Assembly (NCBI GenBank): GCA_041613315.1
Contig: JBFJHJ010000026.1
Coordinates: forward strand, 1-46,995
DNA: 46,995 nucleotides
Reading direction: 5' to 3'
Source of the DNA: Gemmatimonadales bacterium
GTDB taxonomy: Bacteria > Gemmatimonadota > Gemmatimonadetes > Gemmatimonadales > GWC2-71-9
This document shows, one piece after another, positions 27,647 through 37,083 of this stretch. The position numbers were made by a program, and so were the translations under genes. The notes below the pieces were generated by a model that was given only the letters and a program-made list of their open reading frames with translations, was not told the DNA's origin and searched no databases. Positions within the stretch are counted from its first letter, which is position 1, and each line of letters opens with the position of its first letter.

Positions 27647-28111
27647 CTATCTCCTGACCAGTCGGGGATCGAGCACGAAGGGCTGGGCCTGGCCGATCTC
27701 GACCGTGCCAAAGTCGGGGTGGGTGGGATTGAGTAGATAGTTACCCTCGGCCGGCACGATCGCGCTCGGGACCCGGAGCACCACGGACCGGTTGCCGGAG
27801 GCCCATCGGTCGCCGATCTGCTGGAGCCGGCGGGGCGCGGGCGAGGAGGCCCAGTTCTTGGGGAGATCGCGCCGCGGCACCTCGGTCACGAGGCGCTCCG
27901 GAAAGTGCACCGGGATCACGGCGTACCCCCTGAGCGGTGGGGCGGCCTGGAGGTGCACCAGCACCTCGAGCGCCGCGAGCGAGACCGACTCGGAGCAGTA
28001 CACGACGCGTGTGCCCGGACTGCTCCAGCGCCCCCCGTAGCGCCGCGCGCCTTCCCCGTCGAACGCCTGCGGCACGTAGCGGGACTTCACGAGCCGCCAG
28101 GCGCTCGGCAC
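27647..28111 (-). CDS. RES-domain toxin (NAD+ phosphorylase/ParT-MbcT-like)
   Basis: WRL, FDGEGA..GGRWS, VVYCS.S.SLAALE, VPSAIVP, NYLLNP.HPDF. Confidence 0.92.
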   Translation of the reverse strand: MPSAWRLVKSRYVPQAFDGEGARRYGGRWSSPGTRVVYCSESVSLAALEVLVHLQAAPPLRGYAVIPVHFPERLVTEVPRRDLPKNWASSPAPRRLQQIGDRWASGNRSVVLRVPSAIVPAEGNYLLNPTHPDFGTVEIGQAQPFVLDPRLVRR

Positions 28112-28600
28112 TTAGCTGGGGATGCCGTGCGTGAGCCGCCCGATCAGCTGCTCGACCTCGCGGGCCCCGACCTCGCTCTGGGCGAGGGCGAGGGGCGTGC
28201 GGCCGGCGAGCGCCTGCTGCGGCGTCGCGAGCCAACGCTTGGCGCCCGCGAGGTCGCCCTCGAACAACTCCAGCGCCTCGGCGAAGACCCGCGAGGCCCG
28301 GACGAGCCGGTCCGATTCGTCGGGCAGGAGCCGCTTGCGCGCCTTGCGGCGACTCAGGGTGCGAATGGGGATCTGCACCAGCTCCGCCAGCTGCTGGATC
28401 GAGAGCTGGACGTTCTTGCGGAATCGGTCGAAAGCAGTGTAGGGCAGGCCTTGATGCACCCGCGCCACCAGCGCTTCGGTCCCCGTAGCCCTGAGGCCGA
28501 GGAGCGCCACATAGTAGTGGGGTGCGTGGGGGCCGCCCCGGAGTTCTGCGCGCAGGCGGGCGAGATCCCCCGCCGCCCTACGGGTCGCGGTCTTGGGCAT
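28112..28600 (-). CDS. Xre/MbcA/ParS antitoxin (HTH plus DUF2384)
   Basis: IPIRTLSRRK, ESDRLVR, AKRWLATP..ALAGRTPL, GAREVEQLIGRL.HG; abuts the toxin; AGGAGG RBS. Confidence 0.93.
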   Translation of the reverse strand: MPKTATRRAAGDLARLRAELRGGPHAPHYYVALLGLRATGTEALVARVHQGLPYTAFDRFRKNVQLSIQQLAELVQIPIRTLSRRKARKRLLPDESDRLVRASRVFAEALELFEGDLAGAKRWLATPQQALAGRTPLALAQSEVGAREVEQLIGRLTHGIPS

Positions 28601-28784: not shown

Positions 28785-30131
28785 ATGCGCGTACTGTTCC
28801 TCGAGGTCGACACGGAGCGCGAGTGGGCTGTCGCTTCCCTCGGACCGTCGTTCATCGCCGCGTTCCTGCGCCAGCACGACCACGACGTGCACTTCCTTCG
28901 CGTCCCGCTGGAGATGACGGCCGACCAGGTCGCGGGGGAGATTCGGGACCTCGCCCCCGACCTTCTCGGCGTCTCGCTGACCACCCGACAATGGCAACGG
29001 GCCCGGCGCCTGGTTCGGGACATCCGCCGGCAGATCGAGGTGCCTGTCGCGACCGGCGGGTTGCACCCGACGTTCGCCCCCGACGACGTGCTCGCGAACC
29101 CCGGCTTCGATTACGTCTGTCTCGGCGAGGGAGAGGAGGCGACGCTCGACTTGGTCGCGGCGCTCGAAGCCGGCGCACCGGCCGACGGCATCCCCAACAT
29201 CATGACCCGTCCCGGCACGCGTCCGCGGCTGCGCCCGCCGTTCGCGCCGCTCGACGCCATGCCGTTCATGGCGCGCGACATGCTTGACGAGCCGGACGCG
29301 GTCGTCCACATGTCCACGCAGCGCGGCTGTCCGTTCCCCTGCACCTACTGCGGCGCCCGCAAGTTCCACGATCTGTACGAGGGCGTCGGCAGCTACGGTC
29401 GGCGGCGCTCGTTGGACAACGTCCTCGCCGAGTTATCCGATGTCCGGCAGGCACGCGACGTGCGCTACGTGATCTTCCTCGACGACACGTTCACGATCAA
29501 TCATCCCTGGGTCAAGGAGTTCTGCCGCGTGTACCGGACGGCGATCGGTCTCCCGTTCTGGATCCATGCGCGCGTCGAGACCGTGAACGAGCGGATGCTG
29601 CACCAGCTGGCGGGGGCCGGCTGCCGGCACATCACGTACGGCGTGGAGAGCGGCAGCTACCGGATCCGCAAGGAGGTGATGCGCCGGCCGGTTCGGAACG
29701 ACCGGTTCCGCGACGTCTTCCGCTGGACGAAAGACGCGGGGATCACGGTGACGGCGAATTACATGCTGGGGTTGCCGGAAGAAACCCGGGAGGACCTGCA
29801 GCAGACGCTCGACCTCGCGGAGGAGCTGGAGGCGTACGATTTCGGCTACTTCGTGTTCTACCCGTATCCCGGCACGCACCTGTTTCACTATTGCCTCGAG
29901 AAGAAATACCTGCCGGCGGACTACCTCGATCGGGAGGCCAACCACCGCGAGTCCATCCTCCGGTTGCCCACCCTCACCCAGGACGACATCGCCGAGTACT
30001 ACGAGCGGTTCACCGCGTTGCGGGCGCGCTTGTTCGCGGCCCGGGCCCGCGAGGCCCTGGGACCGACGATCCCGATGGAAGTCATGAGGGCGGCAACCGC
30101 GCACGTGCACGCCTTTGCCAGCACGGGTTGA
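28785..30131 (+). CDS. B12-binding radical SAM protein
   Basis: N-terminal cobalamin-binding domain (PDLLGVS, GGLHPT, GEGE), RGCPFPCTYC (CxxxCxxC), FLDDTF, GVESG, MLGLPEET, PYPGT. Confidence 0.93.
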   Translation: MRVLFLEVDTEREWAVASLGPSFIAAFLRQHDHDVHFLRVPLEMTADQVAGEIRDLAPDLLGVSLTTRQWQRARRLVRDIRRQIEVPVATGGLHPTFAPDDVLANPGFDYVCLGEGEEATLDLVAALEAGAPADGIPNIMTRPGTRPRLRPPFAPLDAMPFMARDMLDEPDAVVHMSTQRGCPFPCTYCGARKFHDLYEGVGSYGRRRSLDNVLAELSDVRQARDVRYVIFLDDTFTINHPWVKEFCRVYRTAIGLPFWIHARVETVNERMLHQLAGAGCRHITYGVESGSYRIRKEVMRRPVRNDRFRDVFRWTKDAGITVTANYMLGLPEETREDLQQTLDLAEELEAYDFGYFVFYPYPGTHLFHYCLEKKYLPADYLDREANHRESILRLPTLTQDDIAEYYERFTALRARLFAARAREALGPTIPMEVMRAATAHVHAFASTG

Positions 30132-30909
30132 CGGCGAGCCCCGGCCCGCAGCGTCGACGATCGTCACGCCGCAGCACCGGGCGGAGTATCGGCACGACGG
30201 GTTCGTGCGCCTCGGGCGCGTGCTCGGCGTGCGAGCGGTCGCGACATTGTGCGGTACGCTCGAGCAGTGGGCGCAGTCCCGGGGGCCGGCGGGCGATTAC
30301 GGGATCCTCCAGAACAACGTGTGGCGAACGCTTCCGGCATTCGCCGCGTTGGTCGAGCGCGGGGGGCTCGCCGCCGTGGCATGCCACCTGCTGCGCGTGC
30401 CGGAGGTCGTTCTGTTTCAGGACAACCTCGTGTGGAAACCTCCCGGTGCCAGGCCCATCGAATGGCACCAGGACTACAGCTATTGGCCGCTCGACGCGCC
30501 CAGCGGGGTGACGCTGTGGCTGGCGCTCGACGACGCGGATCGCACGAACGGGTGCATGCACTACCTGCCGGGCACGCATCGGCTCGGTGAGCGGCAACCG
30601 GCCGATTTCATCGCCGGAACGAATCAGCCGCGGTCGGGCGATCTCCCGCCGCTGGACTGGCGGGCGCGTGCGGCGGAGGCGGTCGTCGCGCCGGCGTCGG
30701 CCGGAGCGCTGCTCGCGCATCACCCGCTGGTGTGGCACATGTCGCCCGGGAACAGTTCGACTCGACCGCGCCGGGCGTTTACGATGACGTGGGTCACGCC
30801 GGACGTGCATTGGGACCCGGCGCACGCCCCCCATCCCTACCTGCACGCGCTCTCGCCGGCTCGCGGCGCACCGATCGCGGGCGAAGGATTCCCTCGATTC
30901 CGGATGTGA
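30115..30909 (+). CDS. PhyH-family Fe(II)/2-oxoglutarate dioxygenase
   Basis: KPP...WHQD (HxD), TLWLALDDA..NGCM..PGTH, distal WH.S..N..RRA. Start uncertain; overlaps the radical SAM stop. Confidence 0.9.
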   Translation: MPARVDGEPRPAASTIVTPQHRAEYRHDGFVRLGRVLGVRAVATLCGTLEQWAQSRGPAGDYGILQNNVWRTLPAFAALVERGGLAAVACHLLRVPEVVLFQDNLVWKPPGARPIEWHQDYSYWPLDAPSGVTLWLALDDADRTNGCMHYLPGTHRLGERQPADFIAGTNQPRSGDLPPLDWRARAAEAVVAPASAGALLAHHPLVWHMSPGNSSTRPRRAFTMTWVTPDVHWDPAHAPHPYLHALSPARGAPIAGEGFPRFRM

Positions 30910-30916
30910 GCGGCGG

Positions 30917-31993
30917 TTACGTGGCCGCCGCCACGACGAGGTGCACGCCGTACGACACCGTGCTCCGGTCGTGCAGGCGGGTGTGCCAGGGGAGGTCGGC
31001 CACTTCGGCGACGAGCTCGAGACCCGCCGTCGATTGGGGGTGGGCGCCGGGTGTGAGGAGCGATCGGACGAACGGCTCGCTCGCGCCACGGTCAGGCCCC
31101 CGCTGCGAGTGTCCCCCGATCCATTGCCCGGGCGGCGTGACGGCCGCCGACCAGTCGTAGGGCGTGGTGAGCACGGCGCGCCCACCCGGACGCAACACGT
31201 TCCGAACCGCCGTGAGGAACGTGAGCGGTGACGCCACGCAGTCCAGCACGTTGAGTCCGACGGCGAGCCCGACGGCATCGTTGGCGAACGGCAGCGCGAG
31301 GGCGTCGCAGGCCCAGAAGTCCACGCGGTCCGCGCCGGCGAAGCTGACGGGGAACTCGCGGCGGTCGTACACGATCCCCACGCGCCGGCGTGGATAGCGG
31401 ATCGTTCCCGTGCGCAGCACGTGCTGCGCGACGCGAAGCATCGAGAAGTTGATGTCGACGCCGAGCACGAGGTCTGTGGTGTGCTCGGCGAGCGTGAAGG
31501 CGGTTCGCCCCACCGCGCAGCCCAGGTCGATGACCGGGCCGGCGATAGGCGTATCGATCAGGTCGAGCCCCCGCTCCAGGCAGCGGACGACCGATCCGGG
31601 CCGCGCGTCGCCCGCGGGCTCGTGCTCGTCGAGGTCGGCGTAGTTGTCCCAGCAGTACGTGCTCAGGTGCTGCCGGGTCGCGTCATACCACGTGCCCGGC
31701 CCCATGCCGTCCCCGAGGATCCCCTCCAGCGTCTCCGAGAGATCGTCGCGCGCGATCAGGTGCTGGATGTTGTCCGACAGGTAGCTCACGATGTGCGGCA
31801 CGAGCACGGGGATGCCGTCCACGATCGGGTACTCGAGGCGGCACTCGGCATCGGGGCAGTGAATGACCCCCTCCGATACGACCTCGCGCTCTTCGTGGAT
31901 CACCGTGGCCAGCACGAGCGGGACGTCTCTCGTGCGTTCCGCTCGGCAGCGGGGACAGACGGGTCGGAACGACTCGAAGTGCCGTCGGCGCAA
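30917..31993 (-). CDS. Class I SAM-dependent methyltransferase with N-terminal Zn/Trm112-like domain
   Basis: CPRC...CPDAEC..YPIVDGIPVL; SAM motif VIDLGCAVGR; CDALALPF, LRPGG. TTG 31993 follows GGAGG at the end of the PAAR gene. Confidence 0.85.
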   Translation of the reverse strand: MRRRHFESFRPVCPRCRAERTRDVPLVLATVIHEEREVVSEGVIHCPDAECRLEYPIVDGIPVLVPHIVSYLSDNIQHLIARDDLSETLEGILGDGMGPGTWYDATRQHLSTYCWDNYADLDEHEPAGDARPGSVVRCLERGLDLIDTPIAGPVIDLGCAVGRTAFTLAEHTTDLVLGVDINFSMLRVAQHVLRTGTIRYPRRRVGIVYDRREFPVSFAGADRVDFWACDALALPFANDAVGLAVGLNVLDCVASPLTFLTAVRNVLRPGGRAVLTTPYDWSAAVTPPGQWIGGHSQRGPDRGASEPFVRSLLTPGAHPQSTAGLELVAEVADLPWHTRLHDRSTVSYGVHLVVAAAT

Positions 31994-32001
31994 CTGGCGG
32001 G

Positions 32002-32388
32002 TCAGCCTCCGATCCGCACCGTGGGGCAGCAGGGCCCTTGGATCTTGCCGGTAGGCGCCGGAATCGGTGCGACGCAGCTCGAGTGAGCGGTGGCGTCGTT
32101 CAACCGGGCCGCCGGCAGGTTTTCGATCAGCACGGTCGCGGATCCCTTGCTGATGATCCCCGGTCCGGCCGGCACACAACCGGGCAACATGCACGGCAGC
32201 GTGGTATCCGAGGTCCGGGCCGCCGGCTTGCCGCCGATGCGTACGGTGGCGGCGCCCTTCGCAATCTGCAGGGGAAGCGGCGGGTGGGGCACCGGCGTCG
32301 GCACCGGCGCCGGTGGGTGGATCGGCGCATGACAGTGAGGTGCGTCCTGCACGACGCTGTCACCCATGCGCGCGGCGGGTTGTCCCAT
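32002..32388 (-). CDS. PAAR domain spike-tip protein
   Basis: Three literal PAAR motifs (QPAAR, KPAAR, LPAAR) and three TV(R/L)I strands; AGGAG RBS. Confidence 0.95.
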   Translation of the reverse strand: MGQPAARMGDSVVQDAPHCHAPIHPPAPVPTPVPHPPLPLQIAKGAATVRIGGKPAARTSDTTLPCMLPGCVPAGPGIISKGSATVLIENLPAARLNDATAHSSCVAPIPAPTGKIQGPCCPTVRIGG

Positions 32389-32422
32389 GGCCCATCTCCT
32401 CTCTCTTCGGTTGCGCGACGGG

Positions 32423-32659
32423 TCAGTTCAAATTGATCATGGCGCCCTTGAGGTTCATGGTCGCCGCCGCCTTGAGCTCCATCGTGCTGCTCGACTCGAT
32501 GGTCACGGTCGTGCCTTTGAGGGTCACGGCGTTGCCGCTGGCATCAACGCTCAGGCATTTCTCGATGGCCGTCAGTTTCTTCTGGAGATCCGCGACCTGC
32601 CGGGTGAGCTTCATGACGGTGGCGTCCGAGCTGCTGGGTTGCAGGGGGGTCCGGTGCAT
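32423..32659 (-). CDS. 78-aa protein: coiled coil plus VgrG/gp5-like C-terminal beta-helix tip
   Basis: GGAGG RBS, ATG 32659; heptad LTRQVADLQKKLTAIEKCL, then repeats AVTLKG/TVTIES/TMELKA/TMNLKG ending GAMINLN. Confidence 0.75.
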   Translation of the reverse strand: MHRTPLQPSSSDATVMKLTRQVADLQKKLTAIEKCLSVDASGNAVTLKGTTVTIESSSTMELKAAATMNLKGAMINLN

Positions 32660-32851: not shown

Positions 32852-34315
32852 CTATCGGACTTTGAAGGGGTCCGTGAATCTCAGTTCCGTGAGGAACCTC
32901 TCGTCGGTCAGGGTACGCAGGAACGCGACGAGCGCATCGATCTGTTCCTCGGTCAAGTCCAAGCGCTTCGGTGCGCCGCCGGCAGTCTTCAGGGCGTCGT
33001 CGAGCTGGGGATGCGGTTGCACGCCCGCGTTATAGTGCTCGACGACCTCTCGCAGCGTCGCAAACCGGCCGTCGTGCATGTACGGTCCCCGCGCGCCGAC
33101 GTTCCGCAACGAGGGCGCCTTGAAGCGTCCACCGCCCGCGCCCTCGTCGGTATCCGTACTCGCGTCCAGACCGTTGTTGCGGATGCTGTCGCTCACCTGG
33201 GCGGCCGTGTGATGGCATTGGTGGCACCCGGCGGCTCCTGAGGTGGTGTTGCCCGGGACGGCGGCAAACAGCTCGTAGCCGAGACGTTCCTGCTCGGTGA
33301 AGATCGGTGCGCCGTCGGGGAAGCCCGCGGCGAGCGCGCGATCGTATGTGGACCGATACGAGACCATGGCGCGCACGAACTGCGCCAGGGCCTTGGCGAT
33401 ACGGTCGGCCGTCACGTCCGGCGTCCCGAACGCGCTCGCGAACAGCGGCGGGTAGAACTCCGTGTCGGCCAGCTTGCTTTCCAGCACGACCAGGGGCATC
33501 CCCATCTCGGTCCGATCCTGGATCGGGGTTAGCACCTGTTCTTCCAGCGTCGCCGCCCGCTCGTCCCAGAAGAAGTGTCCCCGGGCGTAGTAGCGGGCGT
33601 TGGCTAACCCCGGGGAATGCCGGCGCGTCAATCCACCGAGGTACCCGCGGCTGAAGCGACTCGTGTCCGAGAATCCATGGGCCTGCTGATGGCACGAGGC
33701 GCACGAGACGGAATCGTTGAGCGAGAGCCGCATGTCGTAGAACAGCACTCGGCCGAGCGTCGCACCGGCGTTGGTAATGGGATTGTCGGCGGGCGTATTG
33801 TCGGTGGCCGCCACGTCGCCAAACGGGCTGTCGGGATCCGTGAAGTGATTGGGAAGCGCCACGTCGGCTGCGGCGTACCTGTAGGTCACCGCGGGGAGGG
33901 TCGGGGTGTCAAACGGCGTCAGGGAAAGGGCGACGATGTCGAAGCTGTCGCGGGCGATGCCGCCGTTCCCATCCTCCGCGACGATCGCCGCGGTCACGGT
34001 GGCAGGCTCGGTGGGAGTGCCGCTGATCAGGCCCGCATCGCTCGTCAGGCCATTGGGCGCGGGAGTGAAGATGATGCGGTAGGTCAGGGGGTCGCCGTCG
34101 GGGTCGCTGAAGACCGTCCCCTGGCGGGTCGCGTCATAGCTGAACGCCACGCCGGCGGTAGCCGGCTGATCGTCGTTGGGGGCGACGACGAGCGGTGGCC
34201 GATTGCCAATCTGCTCGGGGGGGGCCGTCGTGGGGCCGCTGCCGTCGCAGGCGGTGCCGGCGATGGCAACGATCGGCAGCACGGCCCAGCATCTGGCGAG
34301 AGGCACTCGGTGCAT
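32852..34315 (-). CDS. Di-haem cytochrome c peroxidase (MauG/bCcP superfamily) lipoprotein with N-terminal Ig/cadherin-like domain
   Basis: Lipobox GTAC; FSDPDGDPLTY..ISGTP Ig repeat; LGRVLFYD..CASCH, FWDERA, CHQCH, FKAPSLRN, GPYMHDG. Confidence 0.9.
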   Translation of the reverse strand: MHRVPLARCWAVLPIVAIAGTACDGSGPTTAPPEQIGNRPPLVVAPNDDQPATAGVAFSYDATRQGTVFSDPDGDPLTYRIIFTPAPNGLTSDAGLISGTPTEPATVTAAIVAEDGNGGIARDSFDIVALSLTPFDTPTLPAVTYRYAAADVALPNHFTDPDSPFGDVAATDNTPADNPITNAGATLGRVLFYDMRLSLNDSVSCASCHQQAHGFSDTSRFSRGYLGGLTRRHSPGLANARYYARGHFFWDERAATLEEQVLTPIQDRTEMGMPLVVLESKLADTEFYPPLFASAFGTPDVTADRIAKALAQFVRAMVSYRSTYDRALAAGFPDGAPIFTEQERLGYELFAAVPGNTTSGAAGCHQCHHTAAQVSDSIRNNGLDASTDTDEGAGGGRFKAPSLRNVGARGPYMHDGRFATLREVVEHYNAGVQPHPQLDDALKTAGGAPKRLDLTEEQIDALVAFLRTLTDERFLTELRFTDPFKVR

Positions 34316-36285: not shown

Positions 36286-36819
36286 TCAGATAGCCACTCC
36301 CGATGTCGCCACGTACGTCGCCCGTGCGGTGCGGGGAAACGCGCCCCACCAAAGCGCATTCTCCTGGCGACGGTAGTGGAACAGGAACTCGCCGGCCGTC
36401 TGCTTGACGGCCTGGTTTCGCGTGTTGCTGTAGTGCCACACCACGCCATTCAGCACAATCCCGATGTGCTTCTTCGGGACGTTTGCCATCCGCATCGGCA
36501 TCGGTCCGGGGTGGCAGACCCGCTCTGGCTGGAAGCTCGAACGCTTGCTGACGAAGATGAGACCCGCTCCATTGGCCGGACACTCGATGATCTCTTGGGT
36601 CATCGGGCAGCGGGCGAAGATCTCGTGAACCCGCACATTGGCCGCCGCAGCGGCGCCGCGTCGTCCTCTCAAGGCGGCACATGTGACGCCGAAGTCCAGC
36701 TGCAGAACGTGAGCTACAAAGTGGGCACAATGATTGTCGTTTCTGGCGTCGTATCCGTGAGGGCATACGGCACGCATGGAATGGCCGAGGTAGCCATCCA
36801 ACACGTCTGTCGTGACCAT
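36286..36819 (-). CDS. Putative papain-like (NlpC/P60/Tae-type) Cys-His amidase
   Basis: GGAGA RBS; NHCAHFVAH and KHIGIV motifs; no signal peptide. Confidence 0.55.
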   Translation of the reverse strand: MVTTDVLDGYLGHSMRAVCPHGYDARNDNHCAHFVAHVLQLDFGVTCAALRGRRGAAAAANVRVHEIFARCPMTQEIIECPANGAGLIFVSKRSSFQPERVCHPGPMPMRMANVPKKHIGIVLNGVVWHYSNTRNQAVKQTAGEFLFHYRRQENALWWGAFPRTARATYVATSGVAI

Positions 36820-37083
36820 GGCGCTTCTCCCTTTCTCGAGTGATACCGCCCACCGCTGCCGAGGAGTATTCGGGGGGAGGCCGGTCACGCGATCGTCAAG
36901 CCGGTCGGCGGCATACGCATGCGAGGCCGGGAGCAGGCCACGCGGGGCGCGCCCGTTCGCGCGCCGAACGTCAGGCACCACAATGGATTGACTCGCCGGT
37001 GAGTCGGTGACGGGGACCGTCGCTGCATCCGTGGGTGCTTCGACCGGAGCCCCACCCGAGCGGTGGCAGGAACGGATCGCGCG

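Follow-up and report, generated by a model that had tools for sequence, protein, structure and literature searches.

A PAAR spike-tip protein paired with a histidine N-methyltransferase homologue: a candidate tip-maturation module in a Gemmatimonadales bacterium

The closest described counterparts of the locus analysed here are histidine N-methyltransferases, short PAAR spike-tip proteins and cobalamin (B12)-dependent radical S-adenosylmethionine (SAM) enzymes; the locus itself is a five-gene module in a 46,995-nucleotide (nt) stretch of a Gemmatimonadales bacterium (contig JBFJHJ010000026.1; the whole stretch is termed the window), encoding a PAAR protein, a SAM methyltransferase, a short spike-like protein (the mini-spike), a B12-binding radical SAM enzyme and a PhyH-family dioxygenase. 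We report that the PAAR subfamily and the methyltransferase constitute an almost obligate two-gene unit in type VI secretion system (T6SS) loci and some extracellular contractile injection system (eCIS) loci. Further, we propose, with a probability of about one half, that the module serves the maturation of the spike tip in a contractile injection system, the likeliest candidate here being the T6SS of this genome.

Among described enzymes, the methyltransferase is most like the 5-thio/selenohistidine N-pi-methyltransferases OvoA-C, OvoM and OvsM (PDB 8khq, 9bxl-9bxn and 9bxh-9bxk), on which it superimposes with a root-mean-square deviation (rmsd) of 2.2-2.5 A over 235-242 residues and with which it has the DLGCAVGR, N-x-x-D, PYxW and WxGG motifs in common. 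However, it differs from them in having an extra four-cysteine Trm112-like ribbon and a helical linker, and in forming a separate clade that is linked to PAAR genes instead of sulfoxide synthase genes. CARNMT1, a carnosine and protein histidine N1-methyltransferase (5yf0 and 5x62), superimposes with an rmsd of 3.2-3.4 A over 254-258 aligned residues and, according to the accessible part of PMC12275196, methylates carnosine as well as histidines in Cys/His zinc-binding motifs of proteins, including those of C3H zinc fingers. Unlike the module enzyme, CARNMT1 is eukaryotic and has no link to secretion, and the two are only 11-15% identical.

The PAAR proteins c1882 (4jiw) and VCA0105 (4jiv) have the same fold and the same three PAAR motifs as the module PAAR, which is nevertheless set apart from them by its length (128 compared with ~93 residues), a 20-residue loop, a fixed enzyme partner and the lack of a toxin extension. 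The parallel for the mini-spike lies in the Tvp complexes (TvpA/DUF2169 and TvpC): in the part of PMC13373197 available to us, TvpC is described as a hub-less VgrG-like trimer that is encoded with PAAR and, as a VgrG mimic, is proposed to hold or template the tip in a PAAR pre-complex. By analogy, TvpC may serve as a precedent for the role of the mini-spike, although TvpC combines an OB fold with a beta-prism and the 78-amino-acid (aa) mini-spike is too short for both; DUF2169 was found neither in the window nor in the 83% complete genome. The radical SAM enzyme shares the B12-binding plus radical SAM architecture of the class B cobalamin-dependent radical SAM methyltransferases (ApyD, the methyl-coenzyme M reductase (MCR) glutamine methylase TIGR04014 and TsrM). 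However, it reaches at most 117 bits against their models, the cut-offs of which are at least 251, and, unlike for these enzymes, neither a precursor peptide nor a recognition domain was seen. Within our literature coverage, which takes in few subscription journals, we found nothing published on a methyltransferase or radical SAM enzyme linked to PAAR. Words starting with 'methyl' do not occur in the main texts (supplements aside) of PMC8651086, a PAAR survey, PMC13584744, a 2026 review of T6SS accessory factors, and PMC13373197; the O-methyltransferase mentioned in the accessible portion of PMC10215855 is unrelated.

PAAR and methyltransferase as a two-gene unit

The window genes were taken from our own calls of open reading frames (ORFs) and scanned with Pfam. 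All five ORFs of the module were confirmed, at the places and in the arrangement that an earlier note on this DNA had described, with two genes on the + strand and three on the - strand:

28785-30131, + strand: B12-binding radical SAM enzyme, 448 aa; PF02310 and PF04055 both over cut-off
30115-30909, + strand: PhyH-family Fe/2-oxoglutarate (Fe/2OG) dioxygenase; PF05721, E 1e-27; start codon uncertain
30917-31993, - strand: Trm112-like zinc ribbon fused to an OvoA-C-like SAM methyltransferase, 358 aa; TTG start
32002-32388, - strand: PAAR spike-tip protein of a His/Cys/Pro-rich subfamily, 128 aa; PF05488, E 6e-13
32281-32340, - strand: extended PAAR tip loop, residues 17-36 (PHCHAPIHPPAPVPTPVPHP), candidate methylation site, especially His35-Pro36
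32423-32659, - strand: mini-spike, 78 aa; predicted short coiled coil and VgrG/gp5-like beta-helix end; hub and OB domain absent

In a search of species genomes with the PAAR protein, the best 80 of 184 relatives were analysed as PAAR loci (loci compared with the window module carry L-numbers). The methyltransferase gene was located directly downstream of PAAR in 74 of these 80 loci, and the gap between the two genes was shorter than 30 nt in 72 of 75 (median 6). The six exceptions comprised two loci at a contig edge, one of whose genomes carries a methyltransferase fragment elsewhere, one genome with a second PAAR-methyltransferase pair, and three genomes that gave no methyltransferase match. 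Carriers belonged to the Acidobacteriota, Planctomycetota, Gemmatimonadota, Alpha- and Gammaproteobacteria and Desulfobacterota, among others. Among 301 genomes of the bacterium's own phylum, the methyltransferase and the His-rich PAAR type were present in the same 2, one being this genome and the other a repeat of one of the 80 loci. Similarly, 7 of 151 Thermoanaerobaculia genomes contained the methyltransferase and 6 of these the PAAR type, the seventh being cut by the contig start; three of these carriers, the draw centre included, were already among the 80 loci. In plasmids, both genes were found in the same 2 records. The methyltransferase was not found in genomes with ordinary PAARs only (12 in the own-phylum set and 3 others). 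Because the genome samples are kin-structured, we give counts and no statistical tests. The PAAR and methyltransferase trees ran together (Mantel rho 0.51, 57 loci), a correlation that linkage alone also yields.

Downstream of the pair, no shared immunity-like gene was found in the 65 loci that could be scored: the next gene was on the other strand in 37, beyond a long gap in 9, and close by on the same strand in 19, where it fell into 17 unrelated groups. Likewise, neither a sulfoxide or selenoxide synthase gene, nor another substrate-supplying gene, nor any other metabolic gene recurred among the neighbours in the 80 loci. The earlier note had reasoned that a lack of conserved synteny among the homologues would speak against a shared system; instead, synteny is conserved and PAAR and methyltransferase are nearly inseparable. 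However, the three enzymes do not constitute one fixed system: most PAAR-methyltransferase loci lack the radical SAM gene and PhyH is rare.

With regard to setting, T6SS core genes were located within 10 kb in 54 of the 80 PAAR loci, and in 41 of the 48 loci of at least 15 kb (cluster labels were assigned by eye from known signatures, and some of them were confirmed). A VgrG gene was present in 30 of the 80, and in Azospirillum, Aureimonas, Rhodopirellula and Stieleria, which are non-pathogenic and in culture, the pair lies inside or beside T6SS clusters. The eCIS-type loci were L001, which contains Baseplate_J and DUF6519, and L056 and L179, assigned by their likeness to L001. In the window, none of the other Pfam-scanned genes matched a T6SS, eCIS or tail family, in agreement with the earlier note, which had seen no sheath, tube or baseplate gene in the 47 kb. 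Its description of the module as an orphan thus applies within the window but not to the genome, where contig C7 ends inside a T6SS cluster (80201-89758: tssM, tssL and two tssK genes over the Pfam cut-off, and a tssB-like start at the contig end); nor is an orphan setting the norm, the usual setting of the pair being a complete T6SS. Searches of the 83% complete assembly yielded no VgrG, Hcp or TssC (one PF05954 match was below threshold), which proves little because the T6SS cluster runs off the contig end, and a sheath search for an eCIS in the host genome gave no match. In the C7 cluster, the gene after tssM is small and lipoprotein-like, an arrangement also seen in L062 and L064.

The methyltransferase fold and the PAAR tip loop

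The methyltransferase, modelled with a predicted local distance difference test score (pLDDT) of 96, belongs in intact form to the structural group of histidine N-pi-methyltransferases. The nearest solved sequences were OvoA, OvsM and OvoM (8khq, 9bxh and 9bxl; E 4e-31 to 1e-26), the next match being at 1e-13. In the fold comparison (VIA), OvoM, OvoA and OvsM came first (Z 24.7-25.6), followed by CARNMT1 (Z 18.9-19.6) and then RlmA (Z 18.0), and the first 11 structural neighbours were all histidine N-methyltransferases that act on an imidazole nitrogen. The match to TIGR04345 (E 2e-27) was, at 96 bits, below the cut-off of 170. Residues Y113, G158, G162, D251, P278, W281 and W291, which cover the SAM site and OvoA-type positions, were invariant in 73 methyltransferases, and the four N-terminal cysteines form the Trm112-like ribbon. 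In a quick tree of 97 rows, 79 PAAR-linked methyltransferases fell on one side of a branch with SH-aLRT (Shimodaira-Hasegawa-like approximate likelihood ratio test) support of 99, apart from the OvoA domains and from the sister family described below, and for the methyltransferase the Protein atlas returned its own unnamed clusters and, at 0.93, a carnosine N-methyltransferase cluster. Being a histidine N-methyltransferase homologue, the enzyme favours that branch of the earlier note in which PAAR is the substrate.

Two other methyltransferase families were seen. A sister family from Desulfobacterota (L199-L226) consists of Trm112-OvoA-C-like methyltransferases of ~312 aa with 24-38% identity. 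In 10 of the 80 T6SS loci (L003, L008, L013, L014, L015, L020, L021, L035, L054 and L061), we observed a second, Rickettsia PKMT-like methyltransferase with MethyTransf_Reg and PKMT_2nd domains (two members scanned), hinting at further protein methylation around T6SS machines.

The PAAR protein scored 49 bits against PF05488 (cut-off 27), and its model resembles 4jiw (Foldseek E 5e-6, TM score 0.85 by target) and 4jiv (E 2e-5). The tip loop of its subfamily comprises 20 residues rich in His, Cys and Pro, with the pattern PHCHAPIHP...HP, and the model is least confident at residues 21-30 (mean pLDDT 60). In 70 aligned PAARs, H18, C19, H20, H24, C66, C71 and C105 were invariant and H35 and H102 nearly so. 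The tip loops thus contain nine conserved His/Cys residues, C66 occupying the position of a canonical zinc ligand; canonical PAARs are described in the accessible part of PMC10715212 as having four metal ligands. In 4 of the 70 (L082, L083, L084 and L088), His102 is replaced by Trp or Phe and the symmetric position has changed from Q14 to H, which in the alignment looks like one candidate metal ligand swapped for another. The first 80 PAARs had been retrieved with patterns taken from the tip loop itself; the loop motif was also kept in 10 full-length PAARs reached via the radical SAM search. All 84 PAARs with a methyltransferase in the locus had an intact His35-Pro36, as had 118 of 119 database homologues; it was changed (to HG, LP or HA) in the three PAARs whose genomes gave no methyltransferase match. 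A phage origin of the pair was considered and rejected: the module PAAR had no match in phage records, and the methyltransferase gave only weak Trm112-like matches in viral contigs.

Radical SAM enzyme, PhyH, mini-spike and flanking genes

The CxxxCxxC motif of the radical SAM enzyme was invariant in 6 aligned sequences, and the enzyme fell below the cut-off of every NCBIfam family shown. Some enzymes of this architecture, among its matches BchE, OxsB and AprD4, carry out a chemistry other than methyl transfer; AprD4 is its closest solved enzyme. The Protein atlas gave generic names only. In a metagenome search, the best 80 of 486 relatives were analysed, which split into 27 loci at 52-66% identity and, after a gap, 53 at 27-36%. 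PAAR and/or the methyltransferase were present on 13 of the 27 contigs of the closer clade (11 of 13 for contigs longer than 5 kb) and on none of the 53 distant controls. Among the remaining clade loci, L089 contains an eCIS sheath and Pvc16, L102 contains tssA, tssB and tssC, and DUF6931, which we take to be linked to T6SS, is present in L092 and L096. Further, the clade was found once in each of three genome draws (301, 151 and 251 genomes), always beside the PAAR-methyltransferase pair, two of the three occurrences being draw centres. Eight of 79 PAAR genomes carry the radical SAM gene, five near PAAR and three elsewhere, and one more carries a fragment. Its genome distribution and that of the pair indicate that the radical SAM enzyme depends on the pair and not the reverse. 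The gene stands beside the pair in varied orders and orientations in several phyla; L088 holds all five of the module genes, L063 four, in the same layout. A second B12 radical SAM gene of 654 aa (L088:6804-8768) is divergent from the five-gene module in L088.

The PhyH iron triad (H118, D120 and H208) is intact and, together with R219, was invariant in 13 aligned sequences; the closest solved enzyme is SnoK. PhyH orthologues (47-50%) adjoin the radical SAM gene in 3 of the 27 clade loci (L088, L090 and L100), more distant PhyH genes lie near it in L093 and L086, and none of the 80 PAAR loci contains PhyH. PhyH may belong with the radical SAM enzyme, and its tie to PAAR is weak.

For the mini-spike, so named in the earlier note, we obtained two weak matches of VgrG/gp5 type, to NF041249 (Francisella VgrG, E 0.002) and phrog_4540 (E 0.009); the coiled coil and beta-helix were read by eye from the sequence. 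The label is kept here as a provisional one. The protein shares a G-x-x-I-x-L-N end with proteins of 111-139 aa encoded directly upstream of the same PAAR type elsewhere. Hub-less beta-helix proteins with this end were located directly upstream of PAAR in 7 of the 80 PAAR loci and in 6 radical SAM loci, and the full radical SAM gene was present in 3 of these 7 genomes compared with 5 of the other 72. A homologue search returned only the mini-spike itself, a profile built from 14 mini-spikes found 1427 representatives (given without gene context), comparison of this profile with full VgrG gave no convincing link (probability 4%), and neither DUF3540 nor DUF6484 matched.

Further genes were noted in related loci. 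In Desulfobacterota, T6SS-like loci with a split spike (L055:139-9977, L079, L077 and L080) encode a 543-aa protein without a Pfam or NCBIfam match, a 172-aa Francisella-VgrG-like beta-helix protein (E 2e-5), TssF/TssG-like proteins and, before PAAR, a second mini-spike of 128 aa. In four loci with no T6SS core gene seen nearby (L082:13239-14429, L083:13138-14403, L084 and L088:12942-14489), the gene directly upstream of the mini-spike, PAAR and methyltransferase genes encodes a member of a family of 400-515 aa, also without a Pfam or NCBIfam match. MORN_2 repeat proteins are encoded near PAAR or the radical SAM gene (L180:3087-3791, L181:552-1082, L103:1-462 and L090:3060-4019).

In the window, the two operons converge with their stop codons 7 nt apart, and GGAG-type ribosome sites lie upstream of the radical SAM, mini-spike, PAAR and methyltransferase genes. 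Codon-position GC was 0.81-0.90 in the module, close to the 0.85-0.93 of four flanking genes; a promoter scan gave two weak sites, which were put to no use. The flanking genes did not recur among 253 related loci and were excluded from the module. They include an Xre antitoxin and RES toxin pair (27647-28600, - strand), divergent from the radical SAM gene, and, upstream of the mini-spike, a di-haem cytochrome c peroxidase (MauG/MbnH-like) with an Ig domain (32852-34282, - strand). A protein encoded at 36286-36981 (- strand) carries the motifs NHCAHF and HIGIV, which to the eye resemble those of a Cys-His amidase; neither a family nor a structure matched it, and the related loci contained no homologue.

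Candidate roles of the module

In the proposed maturation of the spike tip, the methyltransferase would bind its own PAAR and N-methylate a histidine in the long His/Cys/Pro loop, the best pointer being to His35, with His18, His20 and His24 as alternatives. N-methylation would set which imidazoles bind metal and could thereby shape or stabilise the elongated tip. We consider the odds about even that one of the PAAR loop histidines is modified by the methyltransferase, which would tune metal binding or tip rigidity. More tentatively, in about one in ten genomes the radical SAM enzyme might C-methylate (or cross-link) either the same tip or the mini-spike, and it is doubtful, albeit conceivable, that PhyH hydroxylates the tip or a linked substrate in a few genomes. 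The hub-less mini-spike would hold PAAR during modification, like the VgrG mimic TvpC. The conserved pairing and the histidine N-methyltransferase kinship uphold part of the earlier note's proposal that tailoring enzymes act on the PAAR or spike, and the modification of PAAR is what we infer from them.

Several observations weigh against this proposal. The conservation of the PAAR histidines can be explained by metal binding alone. The three genomes with a changed His35 form one clade (support 0.93) and their assemblies are possibly incomplete, and the same three PAARs are also altered at G77 or S83, so that the pattern counts as one loss event and a mere pointer. OvoA-type enzymes act on small molecules, and OvsM methylates only the seleno form and not plain histidine, according to the part of 10.1101/2024.04.10.588772 available. 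The sister methyltransferase family occurs without PAAR, often directly before a molybdopterin oxidoreductase gene, indicating that this fold need not act on proteins. As for the other enzymes, the radical SAM gene was not found in 71 of the 79 PAAR genomes, three of its eight copies are located away from PAAR, no PAAR residue tracked its presence (the best reached 6 of 20 compared with 0 of 62), several of the 9 outgroup loci inspected have their radical SAM gene amid glycosyltransferase genes, and a PhyH orthologue was present in none of the 10 genomes tested.

A broader version of the maturation proposal, which we regard as somewhat unlikely, is that dedicated enzymes, among them a bacterial enzyme that methylates protein histidine and marks the metal-binding loop of PAAR, post-translationally tailor spike tips across many phyla, and that here a line resembling that of ribosomally synthesised peptides with post-translational modifications (RiPPs), with radical SAM and Fe/2OG enzymes, acts on a mini-spike-held PAAR. 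C-methylation or His-Cys cross-linking by the radical SAM enzyme and hydroxylation by the Fe/2OG enzyme would then yield a chemically armoured tip, supplied in trans to the T6SS. The proposed substrate is a folded structural protein, and neither the module nor its recurring neighbours contain RiPP cluster features (a leader-bearing short precursor, a recognition element, a protease or an exporter).

Of the rival explanations, the one that survives best, though we judge it unlikely, is that the methyltransferase is a cargo effector, carried non-covalently on the PAAR loop and injected to methylate zinc-finger or other proteins of a host, for example in eukaryotic grazers, against which no immunity gene would be needed; in that case the radical SAM enzyme and PhyH would be either additional cargo or passengers with no connection to it. 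The tight translational coupling of PAAR and methyltransferase fits such a role, as does the action of the structural relative CARNMT1 on eukaryotic zinc-finger proteins. Polymorphic toxins are swapped, whereas here a single PAAR type retains a single enzyme family in different phyla, with concordant trees (though linkage alone suffices for this). Further, an immunity partner did not recur among the 65 scorable loci and an oxygen-sensitive B12 enzyme would probably make poor cargo; on the other side, the gene just downstream of PAAR is the commonest place for a toxin, according to the accessible part of PMC8651086.

Less probable still is that the methyltransferase serves as a chaperone or adaptor of PAAR, its histidine pocket binding the His-rich loop and helping the tip to fold or load, or that it modifies another part of the tip, such as the VgrG end or the mini-spike. 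Such a role would yield the same genetic linkage and the same His35 pattern, and enzyme-fold adaptors and PAAR chaperones are known in T6SS (the Tvp system, in the accessible part of PMC13373197). However, the SAM-binding and putative catalytic positions are invariant, and a pure chaperone has no need of them.

A further explanation, with a low probability, is that the enzymes make a small methylated imidazole-type metabolite (ovothiol-like) as a payload or protectant, PAAR being a mere neighbour. It gains from the closest solved enzymes, all of which are small-molecule enzymes (OvoM/OvsM for the methyltransferase, SnoK for PhyH and AprD4 for the radical SAM enzyme), and from the location of sister methyltransferases in metabolic clusters; it loses from the 80 loci, among which no sulfoxide synthase or other substrate-supplying gene recurs, and from the methyltransferase being usually alone with PAAR, the radical SAM enzyme and PhyH being patchy. 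Finally, a chance juxtaposition of two unrelated operons is barely credible: the operons do converge and PhyH is seldom found with PAAR, but for PAAR, methyltransferase and radical SAM enzyme chance is refuted by the radical SAM clade standing beside the pair in several phyla in varied layouts, with five genes together in L088 and four in L063.

Overall, the accessories of T6SS tips described so far are chaperones, adaptors and toxins. Here, a PAAR type found widely has a fixed partner in a catalytically intact histidine-methyltransferase homologue, which points to the piercing tip being matured covalently. The module adds to the tip accessories of T6SS and eCIS, and tip modification, if shown, would be a new function among them. 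If the proposal is true, the methyltransferase would be a bacterial enzyme for histidine methylation in proteins, with its substrate named and one residue as the candidate site, and the radical SAM clade would contribute a B12 enzyme that acts on protein.

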